Source: Dictyostelium discoideum
Taxonomy: Eukaryota
DNA length: 64,000 nucleotides
Reading direction: 5' to 3'
NCBI GenBank assembly: GCA_000004695.1
Contig: CM000151.3
Coordinates: 1,408,001 to 1,472,000 of the forward strand
Part shown: positions 34,066 to 59,055 of the stretch, in pieces
Layout of the letters: every line of letters starts with the position of its first letter
Numbering within the stretch: the first letter of the stretch is position 1
The notes under the pieces: model-generated
Seen by the model: the letters and a program-made list of their open reading frames with translations, nothing else
The model's database searches: none
What the model was told of the DNA's origin: nothing
Made by a program: the position numbers and the translations under genes

Positions 34066-34114
<49 letters not shown>

Positions 34115-34938: not shown

Positions 34939-37940
<3,002 letters not shown>

Positions 37941-38098
37941 TAATGGGAATAAAAGAAAAAAAAAAAACAAATAATAAAAATAATAATAAAAGCAATACAA
38001 TAATAGTAAACGTTTAAAACAATGAATTAACATTGATATAATAATTTCCAGGTTGTTTTTTATTTTTGTCTTTTTTTTATTTTTATCATTTGTTATTA

Positions 38099-38146
<48 letters not shown>

Positions 38147-38831
38147 GGATTTTTATAAATTATAAAAGAGTGATAGAGGGGAAAGCCATATAATATTGGA
38201 TTTATTTTTGTATTATTAGAACATCACTGGTTGAAATATAAATATTTATTTGATTTTGTTTATGTATTTTTCAACTTTTTTTTGAAATTATACTTTAAGA
38301 ATATTTTTTTTTCCAATATTTTTTTTTTTTTTTTTTTTTTTTACATTTAATCTATAAATAAAAAATTAGGTTAGGGCTTTTATTTAGAAAAAACTAAGAT
38401 TATAATAAAATGATACCCCCTTTACTTTCCTTATTTTGAATATTTTCAGATTTGGCAATTTCTTTTTTTGACTATTAGATTTTACTTAAAATAGTAAAAA
38501 TTCCTTTTTTTAATTTCAATTAATTTTTAAATTGAAAAATGATTCAGTATAAATAGAATAAACTTTTTGAAAAAAAAAAAAAAAATAATCACTCAAAAAA
38601 ATGAAAAAAAAATAACAAATAGAAAAGAAAAGTAAACCCAACTCTAAAAATTAAAAAAGGTTTAGATAAAAGTTGACAGTCTAAAATAAAAAAAAGAAAA
38701 AGGGTAAAGTGATTGAAAAAAAATATAATAAAAAAATAAATAGCAATCTAACTTTATATTATTATTATTATTTATATAGTAATTTCCAAATGAAAAGGTT
38801 TTACATTCAATTATAATCTAAATAATAATAT

Positions 38832-39010
38832 ATGAATCAATACCAATCAAATGATATAGAAAGGAAAGATTTATCTATGCACTATATCATAAAGAAAGGT
38901 TGATCATCATATAAATTTTATTTTCTAAAGTAATAAAATGAATCAATATCAATCAAATGTCAGAGAAAGGAAAGATTTATCTATGCACTATGGCATTTTG
39001 AAAGGATGAT
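38832..39010. repeat. Tandem direct repeat, two copies of a ~107-bp unit at ~80% identity.
   Basis: Copy 1 is TGAATCAATACCAATCAAATGATATAGAAAGGAAAGATTTATCTATGCACTATATCATAAAGAAAGG. Copy 2 is TGAATCAATATCAATCAAATGTCAGAGAAAGGAAAGATTTATCTATGCACTATGGCATTTTGAAAGG. Confidence 0.8.
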
Positions 39011-39077
39011 GATATCATTTATAAAAAATTAGAAACCAAAAAACCAAAAATAAAATAAAAAAAAAGCTTTAATAAAA

Positions 39078-39082
<5 letters not shown>

Positions 39083-39175
<93 letters not shown>

Positions 39176-39180
39176 CATTA
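39083..39180. repeat. (TA)n dinucleotide microsatellite of about 49 units.
   Basis: Uninterrupted ATATAT... tract. Confidence 0.95.
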
Positions 39181-40436
39181 TTGTTTAAAAAACCAATTTA
39201 ATTATTTTAAAAAATAAAAATAAAAAACTACATCCTTTTTTGTATTATTAATAAAAATTCAAATTCAATTGGACTAGAATTAACCAACCGGCGCTAAATC
39301 GAGTGGTGGTTGTGGAGGAAAAGGTGATCAAATAATCATGGTCGTGGTAATGGTCATGGCCACATAGCCAGGCGGTAAAGGTTCAGGAGGTTCAACAATT
39401 GTAGTTGTTAATATTTAATACTTTGAATATTACTACAATTGTAATAATAAATTATTTAAAATAAAAATCGCACCTATTAATTTTTTTTTTTTAAAAAATA
39501 ATAATCTTTTATTTTTATTTCTATTTATCTATTTATTAAATTTAAAAAGGTTACAATTTCATTGCACAATTAGTATCTTATTTATTCGTGAATTTAAAAA
39601 TTATATTTCTTAATTTATCCCTGAATTAAAAAATTATTAACCTCTGATTAAACTTGATCAATTCTTTTATCATCTGTACTCTAAAGATTTACTACAGGAG
39701 TTGAGCCTTGATAAATGTTATAATTATTATTATTATTTTTTTTTTTATTTTTATTTTTTTTTTTAATGCATGTGGGTATTAAAAAATTTATCAGGTAAAC
39801 ATCCCAATGAATTTATTACCTCTGGGAGATTTTGTTTGTGTATATTTTTTAATTTGTTTCTTCTTACTATGAGGAAAACAAATAATAAAAAAATACCAAT
39901 AAGAAACATAATTTGATAAAGACTAAAATTTAAATCGAAACCAATCATTTTAATATTAAAATCAAAAATTGGTTAAAAGTTAAAATAAAAAAAAAAAAAT
40001 TGATTTTTTTTTTTTCTCAAAAATCCCTCAAACAACAAAAAAAAAAAAAAAATAAAAAAAAAAATCTTTTTTTTTTTTTTAATTTTTCATTTTTTTTATC
40101 ACTTAAAAACGTTTCCTAATCCTTTAAATTAAATTCATAGTCGACCAATAGATCAAACAAAATATAAATTAGAAAAATAAACAAATAGAATAATGTGTCA
40201 ACCAGTAGTAGCTACATTTAAGAAATCAACTGTACATGTAAGTACTTTAGATATAAATAAATATATATATATATACATATATGCATTGACACCAACCCCT
40301 TTGTTATTATTTTAAAAGATATATAGAGACTGTATTAGATTAGCAAGATATATAGGTGATATGGTAATTATCAATTAATATTTTTTTTTTTATTTTGTAA
40401 AAGCAACACATTTTATTGAAAAAAAAAAAAAAGTAA

Positions 40437-40479
<43 letters not shown>

Positions 40480-40626
40480 AAATGGTAAATGTTGCTTTTA
40501 CAAAATAAAGATAAAATGTACACAGATAAACAAAAATAATAATCATTTGGAAAAGCATATTAATATTGATTATTATTTTATTTTATTGTTTTTAAAAAAT
40601 AAAAAAAGAATGGGCATGCCAAAAAT

Positions 40627-40892
40627 ATGTCCAAACAAGTTCGTATAGTATTTAGAACAAATCAATTTGAAATTGATCCAAAGAAAATAGAAGAACAAAA
40701 AACAGAGTAAGTAATAAAAAAAAAAAAAAGGAAAAAAAAAAGGAAAACAAATTAACTAAACACTTTTTAAACAAAATAGTGCTGTCCGTTTTTTAACAAA
40801 TTTTATGCAACATGAAGCAGAAAGAATGGCAAGAAGTCAAAAGAAAGCAGCATCTGAATCAACCCAAACTCCAAGAACAAGATCAACTCTTG

Positions 40893-40897
<5 letters not shown>
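40627..40897 (+). CDS. Small hypothetical protein (about 65 aa), 2 exons: 40627..40706 and 40780..40897. Upstream exons at 40193..40237 and an extension to 40609 are possible.
   Basis: MSKQVRIVFRTNQFEIDPKKIEEQKT then a GTAAGT donor at 40707 (phase 2). A CAAAATAG acceptor gives DAVRFLTNFMQHEAERMARSQKKAASESTQTPRTRSTLD*. The composition is non-repetitive and the splice signals are canonical. A possible first exon MCQPVVATFKKSTVH followed by GTAAGT lies 390 bp upstream. I do not recognise the family. Confidence 0.4.
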
Positions 40898-40930
<33 letters not shown>

Positions 40931-41218
40931 AAAATATATAAAACAAACTCTTGGTAGGGTTTAAAAAACAAAATAAAACCAAACAAAAAATATAAATATA
41001 ATTTATAAAATCTTAATTATTGTAACACTTTAGATCTTTTTTTTTTTTTTTTTTTTCTTTTAAAATTTTTTTTATTATTACTTTTTTTCTTTTTTTTTTT
41101 TTTGTTTTGTTTTTCTTTTTTTTTTTTTTTTTTTTTTTCTGGTTTAATTTAAATTGATTTATGTATATGAATTATTTTTTTTATTATTATTTAATATTAT
41201 TATTAATTTTACTATTTC

Positions 41219-41665
41219 TTATTTATTTTGTGGATTTGCAATAGCATTGAAGAATTTACCAGGTCTGTACATTCTAGAAAGTCTAATTAATTTTTCTTGA
41301 ATTGGGGTAGTTGTAACATTTAAATCTTTCAAAGTTAATGCACCAACAGTAGTGGTCATATCTTGATTATGATAATCGATTTGATCTTTAATGAAATTTG
41401 GATTACGAGCGAATCTTTCTAATAAATGTTCAGAGATGAATTTCATGAAATCATTTGAAACTGGAATATTTAATTTACTGTATTGAGCTGTACCATCAAT
41501 AATCATATCTAAAAATTCATCCCATGTAAATACTTCATCACCTGCAAATTCATAAACTTTACCACTTGTACCTGGTGTTTCCAAAATTGATAAAATACCA
41601 CTTGCTAAATCGTAACACTATTGTAAAAAAAAAAAAAATGATAATAAAAAAAAAGAGTATTAATA

Positions 41666-41740
<75 letters not shown>

Positions 41741-42573
41741 TTTTCATTACAATAATAATAATAATAAAAATGATATTTACATGAAGTGGTTGAATTTTAT
41801 GTTGTTGATTATATCTTGGAATGAATGGCCAATTTTGAGAGACTTTTGACCATTTGTTAATGAATTTATCTTCATCACCAAAGATGATTGATGGTCTAAC
41901 TACTGTACAATTTGGAATGATTTCTCTTGTTAATTTTTCACCGATTGCTTTTGAACGTGAAAAATGGGATGGAGAGTCTTCGGATGCTCTCAAGGTTGAT
42001 ACGTGAATGTATTTCTCAACATTTTTACTTAAATCAGCGATACGAGATGCTGCATGAACATTGATATCGTCGAGTGAGAAATTACGAGTTTCATAATCAC
42101 GACCAGCCATATTGATGACAATGTTTGAGTGTGAAATTGCTCTTTCAATTGATTCGCTATCTCTAATATCGAAACGAACTGGAATGATTTGACCTAATTC
42201 GCCCAACACCTTGAGATCACGAAAACCTTCATCTTCACATCTGTATGGTACAACTACTTGAATACCTGTACGTGCTAATAATTGTACTAAATATCTACCA
42301 GTGAATCCTGTTGCTCCAAATACTGTTGCTACTAATCCTGTTGTTTGTGTACGTGAACCATGATGAATTCTTGTTAATGGATTTTCATTAATTGTTGAAA
42401 ATGATCTCTAAATAATAATAATAATAATATTAAAAAAAAAGTTTTTTTTTTTTATTTTAATATTTTTATAATGAAAAGAAAAAAGTTTTATTATTTTTAT
42501 TATTAAGATAAGGTAATATATATTTTACCTTATTTATAAGAGATGGAAATCCTTTTGAAAGATTCTTTAACAT
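41219..42573 (-). CDS. ndufa9: NADH dehydrogenase (ubiquinone) 1 alpha subcomplex subunit 9 (complex I 39-kDa, NAD(P)-binding) homolog, 3 exons: 42573..42529, 42407..41781, 41617..41219 (356 aa).
   Basis: Exon 2 reads ...[87 protein letters not shown]...KYIHVSTLRA...SKAIGEKLTREIIPNCTVVRPSIIFGDEDKFIN. It is collinear with human NDUFA9 [35 protein letters not shown]...MGDLGQLLFLEWDARD...HSNVVINLIGRDWETKNF...KFIHVSHLNA...[33 protein letters not shown]. Donors are GTAAAA and GTAAAT, all phase 0. Intron 2 contains a pure (ATT)n tract. Confidence 0.88.
41665..41743. repeat. (ATT)n microsatellite of about 26 units inside intron 2 of the NDUFA9 gene.
   Basis: Uninterrupted ATTATT... tract between the donor at 41780 and the acceptor at 41618. 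Confidence 0.9.
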
Positions 42574-43072
42574 TTTAAATATTTAAATAAATTTTGATTG
42601 TGAGCTCACAAAAAAAAAAAAAAAAATAATAAAAAAAAATAAAAAATAAATAAAAAAAAAAAAAATGAAAAATTGAAAAAAAAAAAATGAAAAAAAAAAG
42701 TGAAAAAAAAAAAAAAAAAAAAAAATGTATATTGACAAAAACATTCAAATCAGATATCCAATTTTTTTTTTTCCAAATTTTTTTTCATTTATTTCATTTT
42801 TTTTTTTTTTTTTTTTTTAATTTTTAATTTGGATTTGGTATAGATAAATAGAACACTCAAAAATACACAAAATGATATAAAATATATAAAAAACGAATGT
42901 AATTATAATAATAATAATAATTACATTCGTTTTTTTTTTTTTTTTTTTTTTCATCAAAAAATTTTTTTTTTAGTATTTAATTAAATTGTTTTATTTTTAT
43001 TTTTTTTAATAAATGATAGTATTGGTGGTAGTGGTAGTGAGGATTTTATTAATAGTATTGGCATCCATCCAT

Positions 43073-43103
<31 letters not shown>

Positions 43104-43540
43104 ACAATTCGACATAATCTTATATCTGGTAGTGAAAAGATAATGGTTCAATAGAATTTTTGAATCAATTAAAAGTAATCATTCCTTCCATGTTATCATT
43201 CATCTCACTTGGCAAGAAGAAGAGTTTTGATTGATGTTTCAATAAATGTTAGAAACAAAATCAAGAGTTTAATAAAAAAAGTTATAAATTTAGGATACAA
43301 ACCATTTTATTTATAAGGTTAAAAAAAAAAAAAAAAACCTTATAAATCCATCAAAGACAGAAAAAAATATTATTGTTTGTTTAAAATAAAATAAAATAAA
43401 TAAAAAAATAAAAAAATAAAAAAAATAAATAAAAAATCATATTAAGTCATAGTGTTTATATATCATATTTACCCATAAACCAAAAATGGAGTTATATTTT
43501 AATCAAAATTTTAATTTTTTATTTTTGAAAAAAAAATTTT

Positions 43541-43584
43541 CTGGTGCAAGCCAAAAAAACATGCACTGGTTGTGGTGGTGGTTA

Positions 43585-43590
<6 letters not shown>
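43541..43590 (+). ncRNA. Candidate small non-coding RNA (~45-50 nt) downstream of a DUSE-like element. Speculative.
   Basis: ACCCATAA at 43471-43478 matches the Dictyostelium upstream sequence element seen ~60 bp upstream of snRNA and class I RNA genes. About 63 bp downstream, a GC-richer segment CTGGTGCAAGCCAAAAAAACATGCACTGGTTGTGGTGGTGGTTA can fold with an 8-bp stem (CUGGUGCA/UGCACUGG). It is followed by T35, a Pol III-type terminator. Confidence 0.3.
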
Positions 43591-43619
<29 letters not shown>

Positions 43620-43629
43620 TTTTTTAATT

Positions 43630-43664
<35 letters not shown>

Positions 43665-43789
43665 CTGAACGATTTGTTCTACTGGTTTTTTTTTATTTTT
43701 TTTTTTTCATTTATATATATGTATAACTAATAATTATTATTACTACATTAAATTATCAATATTTTTGTATAAAATTAATTTGTAATAGT

Positions 43790-43831
<42 letters not shown>

Positions 43832-44058
43832 CGCCCTTTATATATATATATTACACAAAGTAAATTAAATTAAGATTTTAAGTCGATCTTATATTTTTAA
43901 ATAAAAAAAAAAAAAAAAATAAAAATAAATCAAAAAAAAAAAAAAAGAACATATATATATGTTTTTTTTTAAATAAAAAAAAAAATATATAAAAAAAAAA
44001 AGTAATCGAAGAAAAACAAAAAAAAAAGTAATCGAAGAAAACAACTACAACAAATAAA

Positions 44059-47000
44059 ATGACAACATCAACAATTGAAAATGGAGCATCATCACCAATT
44101 ATTGTATCATCATCAACACCAAAACTTTATCAAGAAGGAGCAGGAGTATGGATACCAGATCAAGAATTAGGATGGATTGGAGCAGATGTAATTGAACATT
44201 CAGAGACATCAGCAGATCAAGTATTAGTTAGAACAGAGGATGATAGAGAAGTGAAAATACCATTAAGTAAAGTGTTTCAAAAGAATCCAGATATATTGGA
44301 AGGTGTTGACGATTTATCATTTTTATCACATTTACACGAACCTGCAATCTTACATAACCTCCATCACCGTTATAATTTGAACCAAATCTATACATATATT
44401 GGAAAGATTTTAATCGCAATCAATCCATACACATCATTACCACTGTATGGAAAGGAGATGATCAGTGCCTACTATGGTAAACAATTGGGTACATTAGCAC
44501 CACACGTTTATGCCGTAGCTGAAGATGCTTTCAAAGATATGCGTTATGATGGTACAAGTCAATCAATTTTAGTATCTGGTGAATCGGGTGCTGGTAAAAC
44601 TGAAACTACAAAATTCTTATTACAATATTTTGCTGCGATGGGTAATATGATTAAAGAATCAACATCATCATCATCAATAAATGGAATTAATACATCATCT
44701 GACGGTATCCCAGTAACACCACCACCTTCACCAATGAAAAAATCACCTGTTGATAAATCGGTTGAAGAAAGAGTTTTAGAAAGTACACCATTATTAGAAG
44801 CATTTGGTAATGCTAAAACTTTAAGAAATGTAAAAAAAAAAAAAAACAAAAAACAAAAAACAAAAAACAATTATCATTTATCATTTTCTAACTTTTATTA
44901 TTATTATAAATATTATAGGATAATTCATCTCGTTTTGGTAAATTCATTGAAATTCATTTTAATGAAATGGGTTCAATTATTGGTGCAAAAATTTTAACAT
45001 ATTTATTAGAAAAATCAAGAATTGTAAGACAAGTTTATAATGAAAGAAATTATCATATATTTTATCAAGTAAGTAATAGTATTTATATATATATTATATA
45101 TATAAAATATAAAAATAAAATTATTAATTTTTTTTATTTTTTTTTTTTTTTTTTTATTTTTTTTATTTTTTTTTTTATTTAAAAAAGTTATTATCAGGTG
45201 CATCAGAAGAATTAAAAGAAAAATTAAATTTAAAAACAATTGAAGAATATAGTTATTTAAATAAGAGTGGATGTTTTGAAATTGAAGGTGTATCGGATGA
45301 AGAGCATTTTAATAAGACATGTCATGCAATGCAAGTTGCAGGTATAACATTGGTTGAACAAGAGAATGTATTTAGAATATTATCAGCGATTTTATTGATT
45401 GGTAATTTTGAATTTGAAAATATAGCCGGATCAAATGATGATAGTTGTCAATTGATTGATCGTGACCCATTGGAGAAAGTATCGGTATTGTTAGGATGTG
45501 CACAACCTGATGAATTGTTGAATTCAATGTTAACACGTAAAGTGGTGACGGGTAAAGAGTCGTACATATCACATAATACAAAAGAGCGTGCTGAGAATGC
45601 AAGAGATTCATTGTCAATGTTTTTATATGGTATGATGTTTGATTGGTTGGTTGTGAAAATCAATTCAAGTATGTCGATTTCAACACAACAAAAATCCAAA
45701 TCGTTCATTGGTGTATTGGATATCTATGGTTTTGAATCGTTTGAAGTGAACGGGTTCGAACAGTTTTGCATCAATTATGCCAATGAAAAGTTACAACAAT
45801 TATTTAATCAACACGTTTTCAAAGAGGAGCAACAGGAGTATATAAAGGAGAAGATCGATTGGTCATACATTGATTTCAATGATAATCAAGATACTTTGGA
45901 TTTAATTGAAAAGAAACCCATTTGTATATTGACCTTACTCGATGAGGAGACTATGTTCCCCAAGGCCACACCTCAGACATTGGCAACTAAACTTTACTCA
46001 AAAATGACAAGTCATAGTAAATTTGAAAAGCCACGTTTCTCATCGACTGCTTTCACAATCAATCATTATGCTGGTAAAGTAACCTATGAAACTGATCAAT
46101 TCCTTGACAAGAATAAGGATTTCATAATTCCTGAACAAATTTCAATTTTACAAAGATCAAATTTCTCATTCATTAAAGTGTTAATGTCACATTCTGATAA
46201 GTTCACTCAATCACCTGGTGGCCATCCACAAGGTAATGGTGGTCCAACTTCTTCCAATACAAAGGGTACTTCAGGTTCATCGTCAATGAAATTCCTTTCT
46301 GTTGGTTCACAATTTTCAACATCACTTGCAACTTTAATGAAAACTATTTCAACTACAACACCACATTACGTTCGTTGTATTAAACCAAATCCAGAGAAAT
46401 TACCTCAAACTTTTAATAAACAAGATGTAATTCATCAATTACGTTGTGGTGGTGTTATGGAATCTGTTAGAATTTGTTGTGCAGGTTTTCCAACTCGTAG
46501 ATTATTATCTGAATTTTATCAACGTTATAAAATTTTATATGTAAAAGATATTAATACTGGCAGTGGTGGTGGTAAGAAAGGTTCAAATAATAATAAAATT
46601 AAAGATCCAAAAATTTTAGTTCAAAATTTATTAACTGGTATTGAATTATCAGATGATAAATATAAGATTGGTTTAACAAAAGTATTTTTAAGAGCTGGCC
46701 AATTGGCAAGTTTAGAAGATATGAGATTGGAGCAATTGGATCGTAGTGCAACAGTTATTCAAAAGAGATGGAAAGGTTATTTATATCGTAAACGTTATAA
46801 ACAACTTAGAGATGCATCATTGATAATTCAAACTAAACTTAGATCAGTACATGCAAAACAACAATTATCAGCATTACAACGTACTCATTCAGCCATTTTA
46901 ATACAAAAAGTTTGGAGAGCTCATAGGGATAGAGTTCAATATCAAAAGATTAGAGATGCTTCATTACAATTGCAAACTGTAATGAGAAGACATTTATTCT

Positions 47001-50000
47001 CTGAGCAAGTTCATAGGGAAAGATGTGAGAATGCAGCAATCATCCTACAAACAAAGATTAGACAAATCCTATCAAAGAGAGAAGTTGATAAAAAGTTACG
47101 TGGTATCATTTTAATTCAAGCAAGATGGAGAATGAAATTGGCCAAAAGGGTTTACATACAATTAAGAGCCGAAGCAAGATCATTGCGTACCGTTCAAGAG
47201 CAAAAGAATAAACTTCAAGAGAAACTTGAGGAATTGCAATGGCGTTTAACCTCTGAAGCAAAACGTAAACAACAATTGGAGGATCAAAAAGTTAAATCTG
47301 ATACAACCATTAGTGAGCTTTCAAGTAATAATGATCATCTCGAATTACAATTATCAGAGATTCAATTGAAATATCAAGAATTGGATAAATCAAATCAAAG
47401 CAGTCAATTACAATTATCTGAATGTTTATCAAAACTAGAGGAACAAACTCAACAATTAGATCATTCAAGTAAATTAAATAAAAAACTTGAGAAAGATTTA
47501 TCTGATCAACATGATTCCATCGAGAAATTACAATCACAATTTAATGAAACTGAACAACAATTACAACAATTTAAACAACAATCTGAGGAATTATCAAGTA
47601 AATTATCAAAAACCACTCAACAATTGGATTTCAATAAACAAGAATTTGATAGATTATCTCAAGAGAGAGATACTGATAATACAAATAATCAATTAGAGAT
47701 TCAACAATTAAAGAAAGCAAATTCAACTCTAGAAGAGGATTACTTTAGTTTATCAGGTATTAGAGATAATTTAGAGAGACAAGTATTGGAATTACGTGAT
47801 GAAAATCAATTAATAAAGGAGAGATTAGATTCATTGGGTCAACAATCCTCTCAGTTCCAAAGTGGTGCAGCATTAGAGAAACAACAATTGGAACAATTGG
47901 TTCAAGAACAATCTGAACAATTAATTAAACTTTCCTCAGAGAAATTGGGTAGTGAGGAGGAGGCAAAGAAACAAATCAATCAATTAGAACTTGAACTTAC
48001 TGATCATAAATCTAAATTACAAATTCAATTACAATTGACTGAACAATCCAATGAAAAGATAAAGAAACTCAAAGGTAAATTAGAGGAATATCAAGATGAA
48101 AAGAAACAATTACAACAAGAGCTCGAAAGAATTAAACAATCAAAACAATCGGTTGAAGATGAAAAGAATTCATTAATCACTCAATTAACAACGGTCAAAT
48201 TTGAAAGTACTCAAGTTTCAACCAATGTATCTCATCAAAAAGAAAAGATCACCACATTGAAATCTACAATCGAAGAATTGAATAAATCGATTGGCAAATT
48301 ACAAGCTGAACAAAAGAATAAAGATGACGAGATACGTAAGATTCAATTTGAATTAAATGATCAAAAACAACAATTCACTAGACAAACCAAAGAGTTTTCT
48401 GATCTTCAATCACAACAATCAATCGATAGACAAAAATCAGAGATTACAATTCATTCATTAGAGAGAACCAATGAAACTTTGAAATCCGATTTCGAACGTG
48501 TTCAACAATCATTGAAACAACAAGAGAGAGATTGTCAACAATATAAAGACACAATCAATAGATTAGAGAATGAGGTTAAACAATTGACTCAATTGAAAGA
48601 ACGTTTCGAAAATGAATTCTTTGTTGCAAAGGAACAAAATTCAAATCAAACTCAAGAATCTGTTTATCTAAAAGAGGTTACCACTCAAATGCAACAAAAT
48701 CAATCACGTATCGAAAGAGAATTAGAGGAAAAGAAACAACATATCACTAGAATCGACGATGAACGTGATGAACTCAAGAAACAATTGACTCAACTTCAAC
48801 AACAACATGAACAATCTTCAACTCAATTGCTATTGGCTCAAAATGAATTGGAACGTCTTAGAAAGAAAGAACTAAAATATAAAGAACGTGGTCATGAAAC
48901 TTCCAAACAACAAGATCAATTCAATATGGAGATTCAATCATTACGTATCACCAATAATGATCAATTGAAATCTTTACAAGATTATGAACAAGAGAAAAAG
49001 AAACTCAAAGATAAACTTTCATCCTCTAAACAAGAGGCTCAACAACAACGTGAATCAATCATTAAAATGGATGCTGAATTATCTGCAATTAAACAACATT
49101 CGCAATGGGTTGAAAATTCTTTCACCGATATGAAACAAAGAAATCAAGAACTCATTGAATCAAGTGCACTCTATAAACAACAATTGTTACAACAAACTTC
49201 AACAATCGATTCAACCATCAAAGAGAAAGAGAATGAAATTTCAAAATTACAACAACAACTTGAAACTTCAAATCAACAATTACACCAATTGAAAGAGGAA
49301 TTAAATTCAATGAAACAATCCAATCAATTAGAATCCACCGAACAATCTAAACAATTGAATCAACTCATTCAAGAGAATCAACAATTGAAATCGGTCACCA
49401 ATGAAATCTCTAAACAATTGGATGATGCTGTCTTTGAGAATCAAAAGATTAACAATACAATCAAAGAACAAGAGATCAAATCAAAGAGAATGTCTGTCGA
49501 ATTACAACAACATATCGATGAAGGTAAACAACAAGAGATTCAACAATTACAATCTACAATAGCTCAATTGAAACAACAACAACAATCTGAAACTGATCGT
49601 CTAGAAAAAGAAATTCAACAAATGAAACGTGAAAGAGAAACTCAAATGAAATTGGTAGAGTCTACAAAATTAAATTATCACATGTTGGAGGATCGTATGG
49701 AACTCTATAGAAATGTTATGGAGATCATTGATTACAAAGAAACTGAATGGGAGAAATTGGCAAGATTGGCCGGTTGTAAAGAATTGGATACAAAATTACT
49801 CTCTGATTTCCTTTTATCTTGTAAATTAGAACATACTAGTTTAGGTAGTCAAATGTGGTTCCATCAAATAGATTATTGGTGTCCTTATGAAAGAGACTCA
49901 AGTAAAGGTATCTTTTATGGTATCATTAGATCAATAGTTGATTTCACAATTAAAAACTTTGATGATGTTGATCTTCTCTCCTATTTATTGGCTTGCTGTT

Positions 50001-51004
50001 CTCTTACACTTTTCCTTTATAAAAAGAATTTAGTTAAACATTTAAATGGTGCAAATTCAATTATGCCAATCATACCAACATTGGGAGATTTAGAAGAATT
50101 AAATGAAAGATTATCACATCAATCATTAACAACTAGTGGTAAATTCTCTGGTGGTGGTGGTGGTGGTGGTATTGATTTCATTGATCAATTACAACAAAGT
50201 ACTGGTATAACTTTTGGTTTAATATTTAAAGCTACAACTCTTAAATTATCACCATTGGTTGATGGTGCAATTTTAAATGAAAATTATAATAAGAAATTAA
50301 CATCAATCTCTGCTTCTTCATTTGGTAGTGGTAGTTTTGGTCTTGGTTCTAATGGTGTTGGTAGTGTATTATCAATTGAATTGATTACAACTTATCTCTC
50401 TTCAATCATTACAATATTCCAACATCGTATGGTACATTTTACATTATCACAAAGATTCTTTAATCAAGTATTTTGTTGGATTGGTGCTTTAATAATGAAA
50501 GGTTTCATGTTGAGACAAACTTTTTGTACAGAAACATTTGCTACCTTTGTTAAAACAAAGATTGACTTTTTAACTAGATGGGCCGATGATATTGGTAATG
50601 TTTGGGTTGGTGATGTCGCTAATGCTTTCCAACAAGTTAGAGAGGTCATCAATGTTTTAAATATTAAAGATAAAGAAAAGATCATCGATGATAAAATACG
50701 TAAACAATATTGTCCAACTTTAAATTCAAATCAATTGAAACAAGTCTTATCTTTATTCTCTCCTGGTGAGTTTGGTGGTAAACGTGTCTCTGCTAAAGTT
50801 ATCGCCTCCATTTGTCCACCAAATAAATCCTCTGCTGGTCAATCCTTTGTTCAAGATGAAAACAAATTAAATACAATTCCAATTGATTCTTTACATTATT
50901 TAGAAATTCAAGATATTAAAACACTTTCTTTACCACTCTCTATAAGACAAACAATTGAAACTGAAATCATTAATTTAAAACAACAAATTGCTTGTAAAAA
51001 ATAA
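44059..51004 (+). CDS. myoJ: Class-V-like unconventional myosin heavy chain (MyoJ), 3 exons: 44059..44829, 44919..45068, 45188..51004 (257+50+1938 = 2245 aa).
   Basis: Motor-domain motifs are present: GESGAGKTE (P-loop) and ...AKTLRN|[14 protein letters not shown] (switch I, split by a GTAAAA...TTATAG intron). NYHIFYQ|[13 protein letters not shown] is split by a GTAAGT...AAAAAG intron. LDIYGFE (switch II) follows. There are six IQ motifs ([69 protein letters not shown]), about 900 aa of coiled coil, and a C-terminal globular DIL/dilute-type tail. The predicted length of 2245 aa matches what I recall for D. discoideum MyoJ. Confidence 0.9.
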
Positions 51005-51321
51005 TAATAAAAAAAATAAAAAATAAAATTTTATAAAAATTTAAAATTATTAATTTGTAAAAATAAAAAGCTTTGTAATAATTATAACTATAATAAAATT
51101 TTATTTGGTTTCTTTTTTTTTTTTGATTGGATTTCTTGTAAATTTGGTAATATTTGGTAATTTGAAGTTCATATTAAGGAATTATAATTTTGAAATATAG
51201 TGTTGTTATTTTTACAATCATTACTACTTTTTTTTTTTTTTTTTTTTAAAAAAGACATCCTGTTTTTAAATAATTTAGTATTTAAAATTAAATAAATCAA
51301 ATAATAAAATTATAAGAGTAT

Positions 51322-51780
51322 TTGATTAGATGAATTGGTCGAAGGAGCTAAGATTCGGAAGCACCGATTTTTGGAATATAATATACTTTTCCAGCTAATT
51401 TTCCTTAATTAATTTAAGGAAATTGTTTGGGTCTTTAAATTTGTATGAAAGTTTAAATTTTTTTTTTTTTTTTTTTTTCATTAATATTTATTAATCACAG
51501 TTTATCCATCCATAATTAATGGTTTTATCTATTTATTTTAATTTTAGAAAGTAAAGAAGATACTCCTTTTATTCATTTGATTTTTTTTTTTTAGGATTGA
51601 TGAGATCAATTTTCTATAAAAAAAAAAATCAGTTGCTTAGATTGATTGATCGAATGAGACAGGATTCGGGAGCACTGATTCAGGAATACAATATACTTTG
51701 CAAGTTAGTTTCCTTTAATAAAATCATTTAGGTCATTAAAATTTCTCTGATCTCTTTAAATCTTTTGCTTTTTATTATTT
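51322..51780. repeat. Two diverged copies (~75% identity) of a ~120-bp unit located 3' of the retroelement. Possible C-module-like remnants of older TRE insertions.
   Basis: 51335-51447 is GATTAGATGAATTGGTCGAAGGAGCTAAGATTCGGAAGCACCGATTTTTGGAATATAATATACTTTTCCAGCTAATTTTCCTT... and 51640-51750 is GATTGATTGATCGAATGAGACAGGATTCGGGAGCACTGATTCAGGAATACAATATACTTTGCAAGTTAGTTTCCTTT.... The first copy is followed by T21. Confidence 0.55.
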
Positions 51781-51990
51781 AATTCTTGAGTAGTTTATAG
51801 CATTTATTAAATTAGGTCGTTGTAATTCTAATGTTCCCTTACATTAAAGAAAAAATGACCATGTGGGTCTAGATTTTCTTTATGGTGGAGAAGTTCAATG
51901 GTGAACTTCTTGCATGATTTTTTTTTTTTAACTTAATATTAAAAATAAGGATTAACCAAGTAAGATAAAGAAAAGCACTTCCCAATTTAA

Positions 51991-54900
51991 TCAACATTTT
52001 TTTTTTTTTTTTTTTTTTGATATAAATAAACTATTGTAGTATACGATTAGTATGTTATTTTTATTTATTTATTTTAGGTTTTTTAGTTTTTGTGAATTTA
52101 AAATGGTATGTTATTTTAGATTAGGTAATTAATAATTAATTGGTGGTGTAATTGTTGGAATTGGTTCATTTGTGTTTATGCTCCATTCTTTTTTAAATTT
52201 TTTGATTGTTTCGGACCATTGGGTTTCTTTTTGAGTTTTTGTGAGGTTGTTTTTAATTGAGTATTGGTTGAAGTTTGATAATGTTCTTGAATATTCCAAT
52301 CTTATTAGCTTGTGCCATTTTGATTTTAATATATCATAATCTAGTGTTGTGTTGTTTATTTGATTGTTCCGATTATCAAATGATTGAGTTATATTGATGT
52401 CAAATAATGATTTGCATAACCATATCCATATTTGGTGAATAACTAATGAGATTATGTTCCAATATGCATGTGTTCTGACTAGATCAAGATTTGTGTTTAT
52501 ATAATTCCAGTTGAACCTGTATTTTTTATATTGTGCGTTTTCTGCAAAATGAAAATTAATATTGATAGTTGGATCTGGTTTAAATGCTTTGTTGTTTGTT
52601 TGTGGTTTATAAATGAGTGTGTATAATTTTGTTGTTTGGTTTTTTGTTAGTGACCAGTTTTTGTTTCTATTGCAATTTTTATATAAAAAATATTTTAATT
52701 TGTCGTGGTTTATGAAGTTGATTGTGTGCTGACAATTGAAAAACAAATGACCATAGGGATCATTATTCATTTCATTGTTGCAAATGGGGCAAACTTTGTT
52801 GTGTAGATGATTAATTGGAAGACATCTAGCATGGAATCTTTGCATTGTATCACGGCCTTTTGGATCTTTTAATTTTTGAATTTTGACAAATAGTTGGTCG
52901 TATGTGTATTTCCATAATAGTTGTATTGATTGTTGGTGCGAAGTAAGAAGTAGATCTGAATATTTCTTGCCAACATAGTCTTTTGATTTGCATTGGTGAT
53001 TGTTGAGTATTGTCGAGTAGAATTCTTTGAGTGTTGGTGGTAGTGAAATATTATTTGTGGTTAATGTTAGAGAGGTTTGGTTTTTTATTAATATTGGTTG
53101 TAGGATTTGAACTTTATCTTTTAGATGTCCAATTTGAGTTGCATAGTTTTCCCATTTTTTTGATTTTTATAAGGTATGGAGAAGAGATTGATTTGTTGAT
53201 GATTTGATCCATCCAACTTATCATGTATATTGAATTGTTTGCAGATTTATGCATTTGTAAAAATCTGTTGTATATCCAAATCTTTTGAGCAACTTGTCGT
53301 AATTGTATATTCCACATACCCCAACCACCTTCTTTTAATGGTTTTAATGATCTATCATAACACATCAAAGGTATTTTTGCACGGAATGGATGGTTGATGT
53401 GTTGTTTTTAATGGAATTGGTATTAGAGTTGGTGATTCAGAATTTGCGGGAGAATTCATAAACCATGAGATTAATTTATTAATTTGAATTTCTTCATCTT
53501 TTGTAAATTCTTCAAGGTATGATAAATATGTTATTGGTGATAGTGAGTAGGTGTTTATGATGGTTGTTTTTGTTTTTAATGTTGTGCCACTAGTTTTCCA
53601 TAGTACTAATGATTTAATCAGTGTTTTCATTGTTTCTGGTAATTTCCTATGTAAACCCCCTATGATTAAAGAAATAGCCAAGGACTCTTTCTGATTGATC
53701 TTTTTTGGTTATTGGGATTCTTTTTGATTGTGGAATGTTGTTTATTATGTGTTTATCAGTGATTTTGTGGGGGTTGATTTCTATTATTGCACTTTTGTCA
53801 AAATTTAATGATGATGATGTTGAAGCGCAGAAATTATCGAAATGTTTGATTGATTGTTGTTGTTGTTCGTAGTTGATGTTGTATGTTGTAGAGTCGTCTG
53901 CAAATTGGGTAAATTTGATTTTAATTTGTGGATTGGGTGAAATTGGTAATCCAATTATTGAATTGTCTGCATTTATTGTTCTTGCTAATATTTCAATTAC
54001 AATTACAAATAAAGTGGCTGAGATTGGGTCACCTTGTTTTACACCTCTTTTAATATCGAATTTTCTGGTCGTTTTACCATTAATTGAAATTTTTGCTTGT
54101 GAGTCAGATAATAGCTTGTGGATTAAATTTATTAATTTTATTGGTATACCAATATGAATTAATGTTCTTTTAATGCTATCGTGAGAGATAGAATCAAATG
54201 CTTTAAAGAAGTCAAATAGTGTGATGATACCAGGGAGGTTTTTAGATTTGAGGTAGTTGATTAATTCATTGATGTTGATGATGTTGTCTATGATGAATCT
54301 GTGGGGTACGAAACCAGTTTGGTTGTTATTGATGATGAAAGGAAGTATTCTCAGAAGACGTGCATTGATTACTTTGAGAGGGATCTTGTAATCAGTGTTT
54401 AGAAGTGTAATGGGACGACGATTTGATATGAGTAAGGGGTTGCCTTTCTGGTATATTGTGTGTATAAGACCTTCGGTGAATTCTGTTGTGATGTGGTGTG
54501 GATTTTCTAGTATATCGTTGAATAATGTAGTGAGAATTGGTTTAACTTGGTTTAAATGATTAATGTAAAATGCATTTGTAACTCCATCTGGACCGGGTGA
54601 TTTGTTGGGGTTACTGGTTTTAATTGCAGCTTCAACTTCATCTTTTATAAAAGGTGAGTCTAAACCATTCCAATATTCATTTTTTATGATGGGCCATGTG
54701 TTTAGCATGAGCTAGTGAGTAATTGGACAACATATTTGTAAGCTATATAGATTTGTGTAGAATTCAACAAAAGCATTTTCAATTTGGTCGGGGTCGGATG
54801 TAATGATGTTTCCATATTGGATTGATTCAATTTTTGCATCTTTTGATCTTTTGTTTAGTATTGCTGATAGATACTTGCTAGGTATTTCTCCATTTATATG

Positions 54901-57230
54901 TTTTTTTAATATGTTTGTGTGGTTTTGATGTAATTTGTTTTTGTTACATATAATATTGTATTCAGTGATGCATTGTTCTTCAAGATGTTTGAATTTTGCT
55001 GCTTTTTCTAATAGTATTTGTTTTGCACGTTGAGTTTGTTTGTCTTTGTTATATTGATAGTTTTTTAGAGTTTTAATAATTTTTGATTTTACTTTTGACC
55101 AATTTGTAAATTGATTGTTGATGTGTTATTGTGATTAGTTATTAAATGATTGATAATATTGATTGCTTCATGGTCATTTGCAGTACCAGGTGATAATATC
55201 CATCTTTTCTTATGTTTATTTATTTGAAAAGGTGAAGAAATTGTTGTTGATATTGGATTATGATCTGATAATGAAGATGGAATTTGGTGGACTTGTGTAT
55301 ATATATTTTCAGGGTCTATTCTATTGTATTGAGTATATATTCTATCTAATCTGTTACCATGTGTATGAGTTGGAGTGGTTTTTAAATTCACCTTGATCAA
55401 TTAGATGGTGTTGGTATGTGTAGGATTGGATAATATCATCTAATAGTGAATTGTCGTTGTGGATACAGTTGAAATCTCCTGCGATAATAGATACATGTTG
55501 GGATTGGTTTGGTATTGGGTTTGTTGAGTGGTTGTGGAGAAGTGTTTGTAGTGAAGTTGCATATGAATTCTTTTTGATGGTATTATTTGATGCTGGTGCG
55601 TAAATTCCAAGAATACCAATTGGTAATTGATTTGGAAATATAACGTCTGCTAAAATAGCTCTACCATCAATTGTTGATATGTGTTTGAGTTTGAGTGTGT
55701 TTGGGTTATGGTTAATGATGATTACACCATTTCCTCGTTTGGTGACAGAGATGATGTGATCGGGAAAATCATGTTTAAGTTGTAATGGTGATGAATTGAG
55801 TTCAGTGAGTATTGAAATTGTTGGACGCGGTGTAAGTTTTGATATAAGTAGTTGTAGTGTGTCAACAGGTTTTTGGTAGGAATTGTGGTGATTGTTGGGG
55901 TTTTCAGTGAATCCTCTACAATTCCATGTTATAAAGTTGATTTTTGAGCTCATACCTTACTAGGTTTGGAAGCACCAGTATTGACTGGTTGTGTAGTCAG
56001 GGCATTGCTGCTTCTTCTTGGATTTATTGGATTTGGAGTTGGTGCACTTGGTTTGTTTGGTTGAGATTGTAGAGGTTTTTGTGGTACAATTGTTGGATCG
56101 GTTGGATTGCTCATTGATAATGAGTTTTTCCCGTTATTATTATTTGAAGAATCACTTTTGTGTGAAATTTCATTATTGTTTTGGGATTGATTGTTAATAT
56201 CAAGTGATTCATTTAGTATAGCTTTTGAACCACTATTTTGAAGTGAGTTATTATTGCGATTGGAATTTGCAATTTCGTTGATTGGTGGGGTGTTAATGTT
56301 GTTTTTTGGTGGTTGATTGTTTTTGTTCATGTTTGGGTTTGTGATGGCATTTTTTATAGTTGTTGCCATATCTGCATTTTTTGCATGTTGAATTTTGTGT
56401 TTAGTGACACTACGTGTTGCAGCTTTGATATATCTTGTGATACCAGATGGTTGTTCGATCTTTTGATCAACAATGTTGTGTGTGTGATCAATTAGATGAT
56501 ATGTTATAATGTAACTTTTAAACGCAACAGCATATGAGTATGTGACAGTAAATGATTCAATTGATGTACAACTGGTGAATTTAGTGAGGTTGTTTGTAAT
56601 TGCCTCGTTTGCATGTTTGGGTGAGTACGTTTTAATGAATGTTTTAATGATTGCATAATCATTTGATGATATATCGAATCTATAGTTGAGTTTGTCGATA
56701 TTTAGTGCAAGTTGGTTTTGAAGGTTGATTATTGAAGTTAATTTATCAACGTTGCAATTTACGAAGGCAGTTGCACCAATTATTTTAAATGCTGATGGCG
56801 ACAGTATATCTTCGAAGAGTTTGTGAATGTTTTTGTGAATTTGTTGGATTCTTGTGTCATCTTTAGAGGTTAATTCTTCACGGATGTGTGGTTGATTAAA
56901 GTAACACTTAATGTTGATGGTGTTATTGTTTTTTTCTAAGAAAGAGAGTGGTCTTGTGATTGATGGAGGTGCAATGATATCTAATTGATTATCAAGTCCT
57001 TTGTTTAGTGAGAGTTGGTTTGTTGGGGTTTGTTTTTTAGGTGTGTCGATTTTTGCACTTTTGTTTTTTGTTGTTGAGGTTGTGGAGGTATTATTTGTAG
57101 GTTGTGTTGTTATCTGTATGATTTAACTGTAATTCAGTTGAGTGATCATCAGCCATTGTTGAAAAGTATATAGGACGATAGCCCTTGCTTTATTGAGCAA
57201 AAAAAGGGTAAAATTAAGAGGAATGAATGT
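51991..57230 (-). mobile_element. tRNA-gene-targeted non-LTR retrotransposon (TRE3-like), about 5.2 kb. It has an ORF1-like region, an ORF2 with APE endonuclease and reverse transcriptase, a C-terminal Cys/His motif, and a 3' oligo(A).
   Basis: The ORF pieces on the - strand are: ORF1-like 56369..55950 plus upstream out-of-frame coding to ~57160; APE endonuclease 55953..55354 (ITWNCRGF...SIIAGDFNCIHN); RT 54708..53647 (PITLLNTDYKIPLKVINARL, FDFFKAFDSI, QGDPISATLF, FADDSTTY); then 53681..53355, 53368..53114 and 52845..52129 (CPICNNEMNNDPYGHLFFNCQH). The stop at 52129 is followed by ~110 nt and then A28 (T-run at 51991-52018 on +). Multiple frame changes between the ORF pieces mean this copy is probably non-functional. 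The 5' end lies ~120-180 bp downstream of the tRNA-Phe 3' end, in the same orientation. Together with the size and ORF order, this points to TRE3 rather than TRE5. Confidence 0.8.
52129..55953 (-). pseudogene. ORF2 (APE endonuclease, RT and Cys-motif domains) of the TRE3-like element, disrupted by at least 5 frameshifts.
   Basis: Six overlapping ORFs in different frames (55953..55354, 55400..55089, 54708..53647, 53681..53355, 53368..53114, 52845..52129) together reconstruct one ORF2-type polyprotein. Confidence 0.7.
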
Positions 57231-57312
57231 GGCGGTGAAGATATAACAGTGATTTATTTATTATATGTATAAATTCTCGTTTATTTCTTTGTTTTTTCGG
57301 TATCAACATATA

Positions 57313-57322
57313 GAATCGAACC
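57313..57322 (-). promoter_or_regulatory. External B box (ex-B, GGTTCGATTC) about 30 bp downstream of tRNA-Phe.
   Basis: The reverse complement of GAATCGAACC is GGTTCGATTC, which matches the Pol III B-box consensus GGTTCGANTCC. It is embedded in a T-arm-like fragment TGATCGCCGGTTCGATTC that lacks the rest of a tRNA. This is the arrangement described for the extra B boxes of Dictyostelium tRNA genes. Confidence 0.5.
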
Positions 57323-57350
57323 GGCGATCATACCAACAATTAAAAAAATT

Positions 57351-57424
57351 TGCCTCAGGCCGGGATCGAACCAGCGACCTTAAGATCTTCAGTCTCACGC
57401 TCGTACCAACTGAGCTACTAAGGC
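57351..57424 (-). tRNA. tRNA-Phe (anticodon GAA), 74 nt, followed by a T7 Pol III terminator.
   Basis: The reverse complement is GCCTTAGTAGCTCAGTTGGTACGAGCGTGAGACTGAAGATCTTAAGGTCGCTGGTTCGATCCCGGCCTGAGGCA. It has a 7-bp acceptor stem (GCCTTAG/CTGAGGC, one G-U), a D arm GCTC-AGTTGGTA-GAGC, an anticodon stem TGAGA/TCTTA with loop CTGAAGA (anticodon GAA), a T arm GCTGG-TTCGATC-CCGGC and discriminator A. A-box and B-box consensus are intact. TTTTTTT follows immediately on the - strand (57343-57349). Confidence 0.88.
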
Positions 57425-57483
57425 TTTTATGAAATTTCTGTTTTTTATAGCAGTATAAATATTATAAAACGGAAAAAAAACAA

Positions 57484-57757
57484 ATCTCTTTTTTTGATTA
57501 TTTCATTTTTCATATAAAAAAGACTTAAAAAACAAATAAATAAATAAATAAACTATCTTAAAAAGCCATCTTTTTACTTTATTGTAATTTATTATTTGTT
57601 TCGTTTTGAGAATTTTGCGTAGCAAAATTTTCAAAAAAAAGCAAAAAATAATCAGATCGAAAAAAAACAAACAACAACAACAATCTCTTTTTTTGATTAT
57701 TTCATTTTTCATATAAAAAAGACTTAAAAAACAAATAAATAAATAAATAAACTATCT
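57484..57757. repeat. Near-identical ~75-bp direct repeat, two copies 200 bp apart, starting ~60 bp upstream of the tRNA-Phe 5' end.
   Basis: 57484-57559 and 57684-57757 both read ATCTCTTTTTTTGATTATTTCATTTTTCATATAAAAAAGACTTAAAAAACAAATAAATAAATAAATAAACTATCTT. Confidence 0.8.
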
Positions 57758-57810
57758 TGGACAAAAAAGATGTTTTAATCAAAAGTAATAATACAATTCA
57801 AAATTCGAAA

Positions 57811-57851
<41 letters not shown>

Positions 57852-57894
57852 TAAACCAACCCCTCTTTTAGAGACCCTGTAAAAAAAAAAAAAT

Positions 57895-58150
57895 AAAATA
57901 AAATAAAATGAGATCTAGCATCTCAAGGAGAAGCAAATAATAATTGCGTTATCCAATTCAAAAAAAAAAAAAAAATATTATAAAACTCTTAGACCATGTA
58001 AAAAAAACTAAAAATAAAATGAGATCTAACATCTCAAGGAGAAGCAACTAATAATTGCGTTATCCAATTCAAAAAAAAAAAAAAATATTATAAAATATTT
58101 TCAAAGAGAAGCAACTAATAAATGCGTTATCCAATTCAAAAAAAAAATAT
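57895..58150. repeat. Tandem repeat, about 2.4 copies of a ~113-bp unit.
   Basis: The unit AAAATAAAATGAGATCTAGCATCTCAAGGAGAAGCAAATAATAATTGCGTTATCCAATTCAAAAAAAAAAAAAAAATATTATAAAAC recurs at 57903, 58016 and (partially) 58100 with a few substitutions. Confidence 0.8.
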
Positions 58151-59055
58151 TGACAATCAAAAATGTCGAATTTTCCCTTTTGATGGTTTTCTGTAGATAA
58201 TAACCCAAAAATGGTCATTACTTTTATTGAAGCTATAGTCGTTCGTTACAATAATAAAAATTAGTATTATTTTAATTATTCACTTTTAGCAGATTATGTC
58301 AACTCATTTAATAAAATATAAAATGTAAATTAAAATATTATTATCAGTTTTTTTTTTTGGATTTTACTATTTAATAATAAATAAATCTTATTTGTTTTTT
58401 CAATTCTATGTATATTCAATCAATTTAATTTAATTATAAAATATAAAGAGAATTGAAAAATTAAATAATTTAAGATTAAATAGATCACTTTTGTTAAATT
58501 TACTTTTGTTCCATTTGCTTTACTTTTATTTTCTTTTTTTTACATAGACTACTTTTGTAACACAGTTATAAATTATGTATCGAAAGAATTCTTTGTAATG
58601 AAAGTAAATGTATCTAAATTAAATGTAACAAAGTATATGTAACGAAAGTGTTCTATTGTAATCCAATCGAAAGTAATAATTATTCTTTCTTTACTTCTTT
58701 TATTGATAGTGTAGAGTTATAGATATTAAAAAAAAAAAAAAAACAAAGTTGCATTAGAATACACAAAATGCATTAATGAAATATTCCAAGAAAAAAAAAA
58801 AAATATTCCTGAAATAAAAAAACGGCAAGTTTGAAAAAGGATAAGGAAATTTTCTTTTTTTTTTTGTTCTAAAGTACACTTTTTTATTTTTTTTTTTATT
58901 TTTTTTTTTAATTATCAGATTGATAAATTATAAATTTTGTAAATTTGATTTGAACTATAATGAATAAATTATTGTGAAGAAAAAAAAAAAGGGAAATAAA
59001 AATGGAAAAAAAAAAAAGTATAAAAAAAAAAATTTTGAAAAAAACTCTTTTTCTT

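Follow-up and report, generated by a model that had tools for sequence, protein, structure and literature searches.

TRE3 elements of Dictyostelium discoideum are non-long terminal repeat (non-LTR) retrotransposons that integrate 40-150 bp downstream of tRNA genes, oriented like them (PMC5911963), and target the region downstream of an internal or external B box (PMC5911963); the distances observed range from 14 to 228 bp (PMC5911963, PMC5006619). The consensus length is 5,279 bp for TRE3-B, 5,229 bp for TRE3-A and 4,734 bp for TRE3-C (PMC5006619, Table 1), and TRE3-B has been counted in 43 copies, 9 of them full-length, at distances of 34-188 bp (PMC5006619). An overlap of the two open reading frames (ORFs) in the -1 frame has been described for TRE3-A and TRE5-A (PMC5911963), and tandem re-targeting of one tRNA gene is also known (PMC5006619, supplement note). 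Here we analysed a window of 64,000 nucleotides from chromosome 2 of the D. discoideum AX4 reference (the window being the whole stretch of DNA studied), in which an element of this type lies behind a tRNA-Phe(GAA) gene. We are highly confident that it is an inactivated TRE3-B element, whose copy in the reference is likely a collapsed or chimeric tandem and, less likely, a real recombinant. It appears somewhat more probable than its alternatives taken together that the AX4 reference misrepresents this locus, and that a tandem of at least two TRE3-B copies, 5 nt apart, was collapsed into one chimeric 'full-length' pseudogene.

The target and the ends of the element were located as follows, with the tRNA-Phe(GAA) gene being the sole tRNA gene that ARAGORN called in the 64-kb window.

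57351-57424, minus strand: tRNA-Phe(GAA) gene, the target transcribed by RNA polymerase III (Pol III) (ARAGORN and direct reading)
57372-57362, minus strand: internal B box GGTTCGATCCC of tRNA-Phe (direct reading)
57342-57348, minus strand: T7 run, Pol III terminator of tRNA-Phe (direct reading)
57313-57322, minus strand: external B box (ex-B box) GGTTCGATTC (direct reading and pattern search)
57302-57309, minus strand: 5' copy of the flanking repeat, ATGTTGAT (direct reading)
51997-57301, minus strand: TRE3-B non-LTR retrotransposon as assembled (homology and empty allele)
57157-57301, minus strand: 5' untranslated region (UTR), beginning with ACCGAAAAAACAAAGAAATAAACGAG (comparison with other copies)
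52019-52128, minus strand: 3' UTR (direct reading)
51997-52018, minus strand: poly(A) tail of 22 A (counted; the copy c1 of the other assembly has the same length)
51990-51996, minus strand: 3' copy of the flanking repeat, (A)TGTTGAT (direct reading)

The element as assembled measures 5,305 bp, of which 5,283 nt precede the A22 tail, and 5,288 nt without the tail once its indels are reversed. From 57301 to 51997 the minus strand was richer in G+C, and its strand skew was marked. Homology to other D. discoideum copies, at 96-99% identity, covered 57295-51997, with the alignments running from 57295 or 57294 down to 51997 or 51996; the 5' ends of these other copies consist of an A-run followed by CGAAACAAAGAAATAAACGAG. 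The repeat ATGTTGAT abuts both ends of the window's element (57309-57302 and 51997-51990, the first A being common to the tail), as expected for a TRE3 target-site duplication. Together with the 5 nt upstream, its 5' copy makes up the 13-mer TCTATATGTTGAT (57314-57302), while its 3' copy continues as TAAA. No direct repeat longer than these 8 bp was found at the two ends of the element, and ACAACCTACAAATAA is the junction k-mer of the window's copy. An empty allele was present in the diverged strain of GCA_054859385.1, which carries the same tRNA-Phe gene and ex-B box without the element, reads tRNA-Phe ... GGTTCGATTCTCTATGGTGAATTATTAAATTGG, and aligns to the left and right flanks of the window joined with one repeat copy. 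In that strain the tRNA-Phe gene is 100% conserved, and the ex-B box is kept despite diverged flanks. The pattern GGTTCGANTC had a single match in the 64-kb window, namely the ex-B box, with 0.02 expected by chance. We placed the 5' boundary at 57301 because the homology stops there, the flanking repeat ATGTTGAT abuts it, the 13 nt preceding it recur upstream of the copy c1 of an independent assembly (see below), and the empty allele agrees. Measured from this boundary, the element shares the orientation of tRNA-Phe and starts 49 nt past its 3' end, or 11 nt beyond the ex-B box, which matches the placement of TRE3.

An earlier note, made from the letters of the window alone, had proposed a TRE3-like element in this place, and its main geometry was borne out: ARAGORN called the tRNA-Phe(GAA) gene at the position given, the T7 terminator and ex-B box were found at 57348-57342 and 57322-57313, and the element lies downstream of tRNA-Phe in the same orientation, beyond both. 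A target-site duplication, which that note suggested looking for, was found in the form of ATGTTGAT outside both ends and the empty allele. Three of its measurements needed correction, since it had put the 5' end near 57230, the distance between tRNA and element at 120-180 bp and the tail at A28, where we obtained 57301, 49 nt and A22 (52018-51997). Its description of the copy as complete holds for the sequence as assembled, while the locus in the independent assembly is a tandem pair. As a separate observation, the empty-site strain, which is labelled D. discoideum, is 83-96% identical to window positions 33956-64000 in the aligned stretches (mostly 87-96%), a divergence that fits the remark on a 'cryptic sister species' in PMC12745789.

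We compared the element with the described tRNA-targeting families. All of its closest protein matches were from D. discoideum. The repaired ORF1 was 99% identical over its full 402 aa to the 'gag' protein Q9Y1H6/AAD43056.1, the reverse transcriptase (RT) segment was 92-97% identical to AX4 proteins, and the DNA was 98.8-99.1% identical to four Logan contigs (L002-L005), in which ORF1 is open and ORF2 is open as far as the contig reaches (983 aa in L002). The protein DDB_G0291686 (P0129), listed as 'TRE3-B ORF2' (PMC12405889 Table 2), was 95% identical to the window's ORF2 and belongs to the same 90% protein cluster as the best RT match (P0006, 97% identical). Judged by its sequence, the element is assigned to TRE3-B because of this ORF2 identity and a length near the 5,279-bp consensus, that is, through a product name and length and not through a consensus alignment. 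Its length agrees with that of TRE3-B within 0.2%, and it has the overlapping ORFs, the APE-RT-zinc finger order, the poly(A) tail and a distance of 49 nt that lies within the published 34-188 bp. It differs from TRE3-B in that the window copy, whose ORFs are both frameshifted and which also has a nonsense codon, is non-functional, in that it has no short 5' A-run such as other copies have, and in that it is apparently a merger of two tandem copies. Other TRE3-B copies were also found in the same orientation downstream of tRNA genes, at about 47 nt (contig L001, tRNA-Thr) and about 43 nt (contig L006, an intron-containing tRNA gene). Relative to the ex-B box, insertion occurred 11 nt past it in the window, about 5 nt past it in L006, and in L001 in the interval that separates the tRNA gene from the ex-B box.

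The subfamily TRE3-A (Tdd-3), which is the most abundant within TRE3, has the same architecture and the same downstream-of-tRNA targeting, but its consensus length is off by 54 nt from the element as assembled and by 59 nt from the repaired one, compared with only 4-9 nt for TRE3-B. A second D. discoideum cluster of RT proteins (P0003, P0005, P0139 and P0141) was 55-58% identical to the window's RT; presumably it represents TRE3-A or another subfamily. TRE5-A (DRE) is a related L1-type non-LTR element that likewise targets tRNA genes, and its ORF2 has its domains in the same order. However, TRE5 elements, which have modular A/B/C UTRs, insert upstream of tRNA genes, at a distance of 40-54 bp and with opposite orientation (PMC5911963), whereas the window's element is downstream in the same orientation. 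The LTR retrotransposon Skipper-2 (formerly DGLT-P) shares the target zone downstream of tRNA genes (PMC5006619), but it is a Ty3/gypsy element with LTRs, integrase and chromodomain, while the window's element has neither LTRs nor integrase and carries an APE domain and a poly(A) tail.

The coding regions were then read relative to the contigs with intact ORFs, and the lesions below are called on this basis.

55950-57156, minus strand: ORF1 ('gag', 402 aa when repaired; 99% identical to Q9Y1H6/AAD43056.1)
52129-55953, minus strand: ORF2 (1,275 aa when repaired; frame reading and L002 join)
55254-55926, minus strand: APE endonuclease domain with WNCRG, LTELN, GDFN, RLDRIY and SDHNP (Pfam Exo_endo_phos, E=1.6e-8)
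53758-54429, minus strand: RT domain with FDFFKAFD, QGDPIS and FADD (Pfam RVT_1, E=1.6e-29)
52732-52791, minus strand: zinc-finger-like motif CPICNNEMNNDPYGHLFFNC, CX2CX10HX4C (motif location)
57099/57100, minus strand: AA deleted in ORF1, a -2 frameshift (window only)
55378, minus strand: +1 insertion of C in ORF2, within the APE domain (window only)
55117-55118, minus strand: 1-nt deletion (T) in ORF2 (common to c2, not c1)
54712-54714, minus strand: in-frame TAG (CAG>TAG) in ORF2, between the APE and RT domains (also in c1)
54376-54380, minus strand: compensating pair +C (54380) and -A (54376) in ORF2, changing ILSKV to IPLKV (window only)
53658-53660, minus strand: +1 frameshift (GGG for AT) in ORF2 (window only)
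53424-53425, minus strand: 1-nt deletion (C) in ORF2 (common to c1)
53383-53384, minus strand: 1-nt deletion (A) in ORF2 (window only)
53156-53157, minus strand: 2-nt deletion (AG) in ORF2 (common to c1)

The TGA of ORF1 (55952-55950) overlaps the ATG of ORF2 (55953-55951) as ATGA, which places ORF2 in the -1 frame as in TRE3, and a single ORF2 of 1,275 aa results when L002 is joined to the last 1.03 kb of the window's ORF2, a part that is open. With two ORFs, the APE-RT-zinc finger order, short UTRs and a poly(A) tail, the architecture is that of a TRE3 non-LTR element. The lesions of ORF2 add up to six frameshifting indels, a compensated pair of indels and one nonsense codon. No frameshifting indel alters the length of a long homopolymer, and the compensated pair changes short runs (CC to CCC, AAAA to AAA). 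The earlier reading of a minus-strand element of the long interspersed nuclear element (LINE) type with APE, RT and a CPICN...H...C motif agrees with both Pfam domains and with all of the motifs located, and the ORF2 that it saw broken into at least six frames was counted here as seven frame segments. The ORF1-like region of that reading is a 402-aa 'gag' when repaired, and is itself broken by the missing AA at 57099/57100. The same reading had left a choice between decay and homopolymer errors of the assembly; four of the lesions are real in that they recur in an independent assembly (TAG 54714 and the deletions at 53424 and 53156 in c1, the deletion at 55117 in c2), while the remaining frameshifting indels occur in the window only, and none of them alters the length of a long homopolymer. 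Both alternatives thus apply in part, neither of them just as it was put, and the copy as a whole looks like two tandem copies merged. The window-only frameshifting indels are four in number (57099/57100, 55378, 53660 and 53383). As far as can be read from its sequence, the window copy is dead and its own proteins are predicted not to be made.

The independent assembly is GCA_054883475.1, a long-read assembly of a near-identical lab strain, which fits the AX2-214 Nanopore plus Illumina assembly (N50 5.3 Mb, L50 3) of PMC12745789 and may well be the same. Its Myosin-J (MyoJ) protein is identical to that of AX4, and its flank showed 0 mismatches to the window in 8.6 kb, with differences in homopolymer length only. 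As shown by the sequence of its locus (L007), two TRE3-B copies stand there in tandem, which we call c2 (on the tRNA side) and c1. The sequence reads c2 ... A17, then TCTATATGTTGAT TAAA, then CTGTTATATCTTCACC / AATACAAAT ... c1 ... A22, and then TGTTGATTAAATTGGG. The copy c2 appears near-full-length because its gene model is 1,553 aa long, and its tail is followed by 13 nt (TCTATATGTTGAT) that are identical to those immediately before the 5' end of the window's element. The copy c1 is 5'-truncated, internally deleted and rearranged; it is flanked by (A)TGTTGATTAAA, a duplication of 11-12 bp, and TGTTGATTAAACTGTTATATCTTCACCAATAC is its junction k-mer. In the same assembly, 18 kb of unique DNA (window positions 34074-52000) differed from the window only by a handful of substitutions and at many long A/T runs, which are 1-10 nt shorter in the long-read assembly, indicating that homopolymer lengths are unreliable in one of the two assemblies.

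The window's element was compared with these two copies. Its 3' junction and A22 tail recur in c1, as do the TAG at 54714, the two deletions (53424 and 53156) and, starting at 54966 and continuing downstream, about 20 derived substitutions. Because of these common features, c1 is, on sequence grounds, taken to be the same insertion event as the 3' half of the window's element. With c2 the window's element has in common two variants, 55356T and 55102T, as well as the missing T at 55117, and it has none of the 22 c1-private variants between 57027 and 54991. The substitutions private to the window lie between 56604 and 55816, and its private -2 lesion at 57099/57100 is within 2 nt of the 5' breakpoint of c1. 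Overall, the substitutions of the window are a mosaic in which some variants are c2-like, others c1-like and others private. No annotated ORF1 protein with all of the window-private ORF1 variants (PNPINPRR...GASKPSKV) was found.

The history of the locus that we consider most likely has two steps. In the first, the 5'-truncated, rearranged c1 would have inserted with the duplication (A)TGTTGATTAAA; in the second, the near-full-length c2 would have inserted 5 nt closer to the tRNA gene with a putative duplication TCTATATGTTGAT, and under this order the expected 5' junction of c2 is GGTTCGATTCTATATGTTGAT followed directly by ACCG. The outcome would be the tandem of the long-read assembly, and the window's element would combine a 5' junction of c2 type with the 3' junction of c1, so that its 8-bp 'duplication' may be the overlap of two real ones (11-12 bp and probably 13 bp). 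The window's element is derived from such a tandem, because the duplication that belongs to c1 directly adjoins its truncated end, an arrangement that a single full-length insertion cannot yield, and because a new insertion of c2 in the other lineage would leave AX4 with the truncated 5' end of c1, which is not seen. An in-silico collapse of the tandem is favoured because a three-way mosaic that includes private variants lies between identical flanks.

Several points weigh against this account of the element and should be set beside it. From assembled sequences, an in-silico collapse and a real recombinant are not separable. Nine positions between 55872 and 55378 differ between the window and c2, which a simple crossover between c2 and c1 does not explain, so that a third read source or tandem copy must be assumed. 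Because L007 ends within c2, the 13-bp duplication of c2 and its match to the 5' junction of the window are deduced. The identity of GCA_054883475.1 with AX2-214 would follow from assembly statistics and near-identity, not from the record, and the TRE3-B label comes from one dictyBase product name via one paper, together with the agreement in length.

The alternative that survives best, although we consider it unlikely, is a real single element that arose in the AX3/AX4 lineage by unequal homologous recombination between the tandem copies c2 and c1, with one unit length deleted. A c2-type 5' junction with the c1 3' junction is exactly the product expected from such an event, and the variants do switch from c2-like (55356-54991) to c1-like (54966 downstream). 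However, a recent recombinant should be a clean mosaic of c2 and c1, whereas 11 or more substitutions and several indels are private to the window. Absent from it, too, are the c2-private variants at 55741-55460 and five c1-private variants at 54355-53860, which is too many differences for strains with identical flanks.

Much less credible is that the true AX4 locus holds a single full-length TRE3-B with the 8-bp duplication ATGTTGAT that decayed in place, the tandem having arisen later in the other lineage. The clean junctions with an exact 8-bp direct repeat at both ends, the match of the empty allele to the window junctions and the four independently confirmed lesions would all suit such a copy. 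Yet c1, although the same event, is 5'-truncated with its own duplication TGTTGATTAAA, which a simple deletion cannot recreate, and if c2 were newer in the other lineage, the truncated 5' end of c1, absent from AX4, would be expected there. In addition, 0 substitutions in the 8.6-kb flank stand against dozens of differences inside the element, and duplications at other copies measure 11-13 bp.

It is hardly conceivable that all of the frameshifts are sequencing or assembly errors and that the copy is really intact and retrotransposition-competent. The indels at 55378, 53660, 53383 and 57099/57100 are indeed seen in the window only, intact-ORF family members exist (L002-L005), and 9 full-length TRE3-B copies have been counted (PMC5006619). 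In contrast, TAG 54714 and the deletions at 53424 and 53156 in c1, and the deletion at 55117 in c2, come from an independent Nanopore/Illumina assembly, and in no case does a frameshifting indel lengthen or shorten a long homopolymer run. An intact active copy was rejected, neither real copy at the locus being intact; since both are defective, the site is, by their sequences, predicted to hold dead elements.

That the element is a TRE5 element, or an untargeted LINE near a tRNA gene by chance, has practically no probability left: the APE-RT-zinc finger architecture is common to TRE5 and TRE3 (PMC5006619), but the element lies downstream in the same orientation where TRE5 would lie about 50 bp upstream in the opposite one (PMC5911963), copies of the same family stand 43-47 nt behind other tRNA genes, and the element's 90% protein cluster includes a protein named TRE3-B ORF2, so that placement and named homologue refute it.

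Returning to the collapsed tandem, each of its insertions could have followed the route proposed for such elements. According to the literature and in part by inference, the element RNA would give ORF1 ('gag') and ORF2 (APE-RT-zinc finger), with ORF2 reached through the ATGA overlap in the -1 frame. The complex would then be steered to Pol III-transcribed tRNA genes, presumably by TFIIIC or TFIIIB at the B box or ex-B box, and would insert by target-primed reverse transcription with the poly(A) end distal to the tRNA gene, leaving behind a target-site duplication of 11-13 bp. At tRNA-Phe, too, a complex of Pol III factors may have been recognised and the element inserted by target-primed reverse transcription.

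The window's element is a known element of a known subfamily in a known place; it is ordinary, and the copy already has an AX4 gene model. TRE3 elements and their preference for sites downstream of tRNA genes have been described, and so have the ex-B box and the tandem re-targeting of one tRNA gene (PMC5006619, PMC5911963). The value of the result is in curation: the element can be labelled TRE3-B with its ends at 57301 and 51997, and since two tandem copies are probably merged in the reference, long-read assemblies should be used at such loci when TRE decay or activity is analysed copy by copy. If the collapse is true and typical, TRE copy numbers, counts of 'full-length' elements and per-copy mutation loads taken from the AX4 reference would be biased at tandem sites. 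If it is true, the following gene model would rest on a collapsed chimeric pseudogene.

53650-57122, minus strand: DDB_G0272400 (P0153), a 799-aa annotated protein

The protein of this AX4 model, on a chromosome of 8,484,197 bp, joins ORF1 to the C-terminal portion of the APE domain and to the RT segment, with the frameshifts skipped, and it reproduces private features of the window's element (IYQKGNPLL, YKIPLKV, and the ending FFNHRGFT). The model is a spliced annotation artefact across a pseudogene and no host gene. The window was identified as chromosome 2 of the AX4 reference, beside myoJ, because DDB_G0272400 copies the idiosyncrasies of the element and the neighbour is myoJ; Myosin-J (DDB_G0272112) corresponds to the long ORF at 45329-51004. 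No other copies or fragments of the element were found in the 64-kb window, where only low-complexity A/T-rich sequences matched its 3' UTR and tail.

Further TRE3-B copies were observed outside the window. At positions 5858-12248 of L010 (GCA_054883475.1, CM142511.1), a copy with a clean 11-bp duplication ATCATCATTTC was found, compared with which the 8-bp repeat of the window looks short. ARAGORN called no tRNA gene in the 5.8 kb upstream of this copy, which adjoins a ketoacyl-synthase gene model and has a B-box-like sequence, GAGATCGATTC, about 75 nt upstream. In L001 (10216-10290), a 'mini' TRE3-B consists of about 17 nt of the 5' end (ACCGAAACAAAGAAATA) joined to the last approximately 15 nt and the poly(A) tail. 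It stands in tandem behind a rearranged copy, and the two of them occupy the space that separates tRNA-Thr(AGT) from its ex-B box GGTTCGACTCC. On L009 (7900-8111) there is a second tRNA-Phe(GAA) gene, about 20 nt downstream of which a 5'-truncated TRE3-B starts at the ORF1 ATG. This copy is interrupted by an insert of about 60 nt with A19 at its end, and at a distance of 2 kb the 5' end of a separate TRE3-B stands head-to-head with it.

Upstream of tRNA-Phe, the window contains an 86-nt direct repeat (57474-57559 and 57673-57758), whose two copies are 95% identical, 199 nt apart from start to start and separated by 113 nt. The proximal copy ends 50 nt upstream of the 5' end of tRNA-Phe, which equals the integration distance of TRE5. 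Farther on, at 57889-58152, a unit of about 86 nt (...ATGAGATCTAGCATCTCAAGGAGAAGCAA.TAATAATTGCGTTATCCAATTC...) occurs three times, with 93% and 70% identity to the reference copy, and in the empty-site strain (L008) this unit is single.

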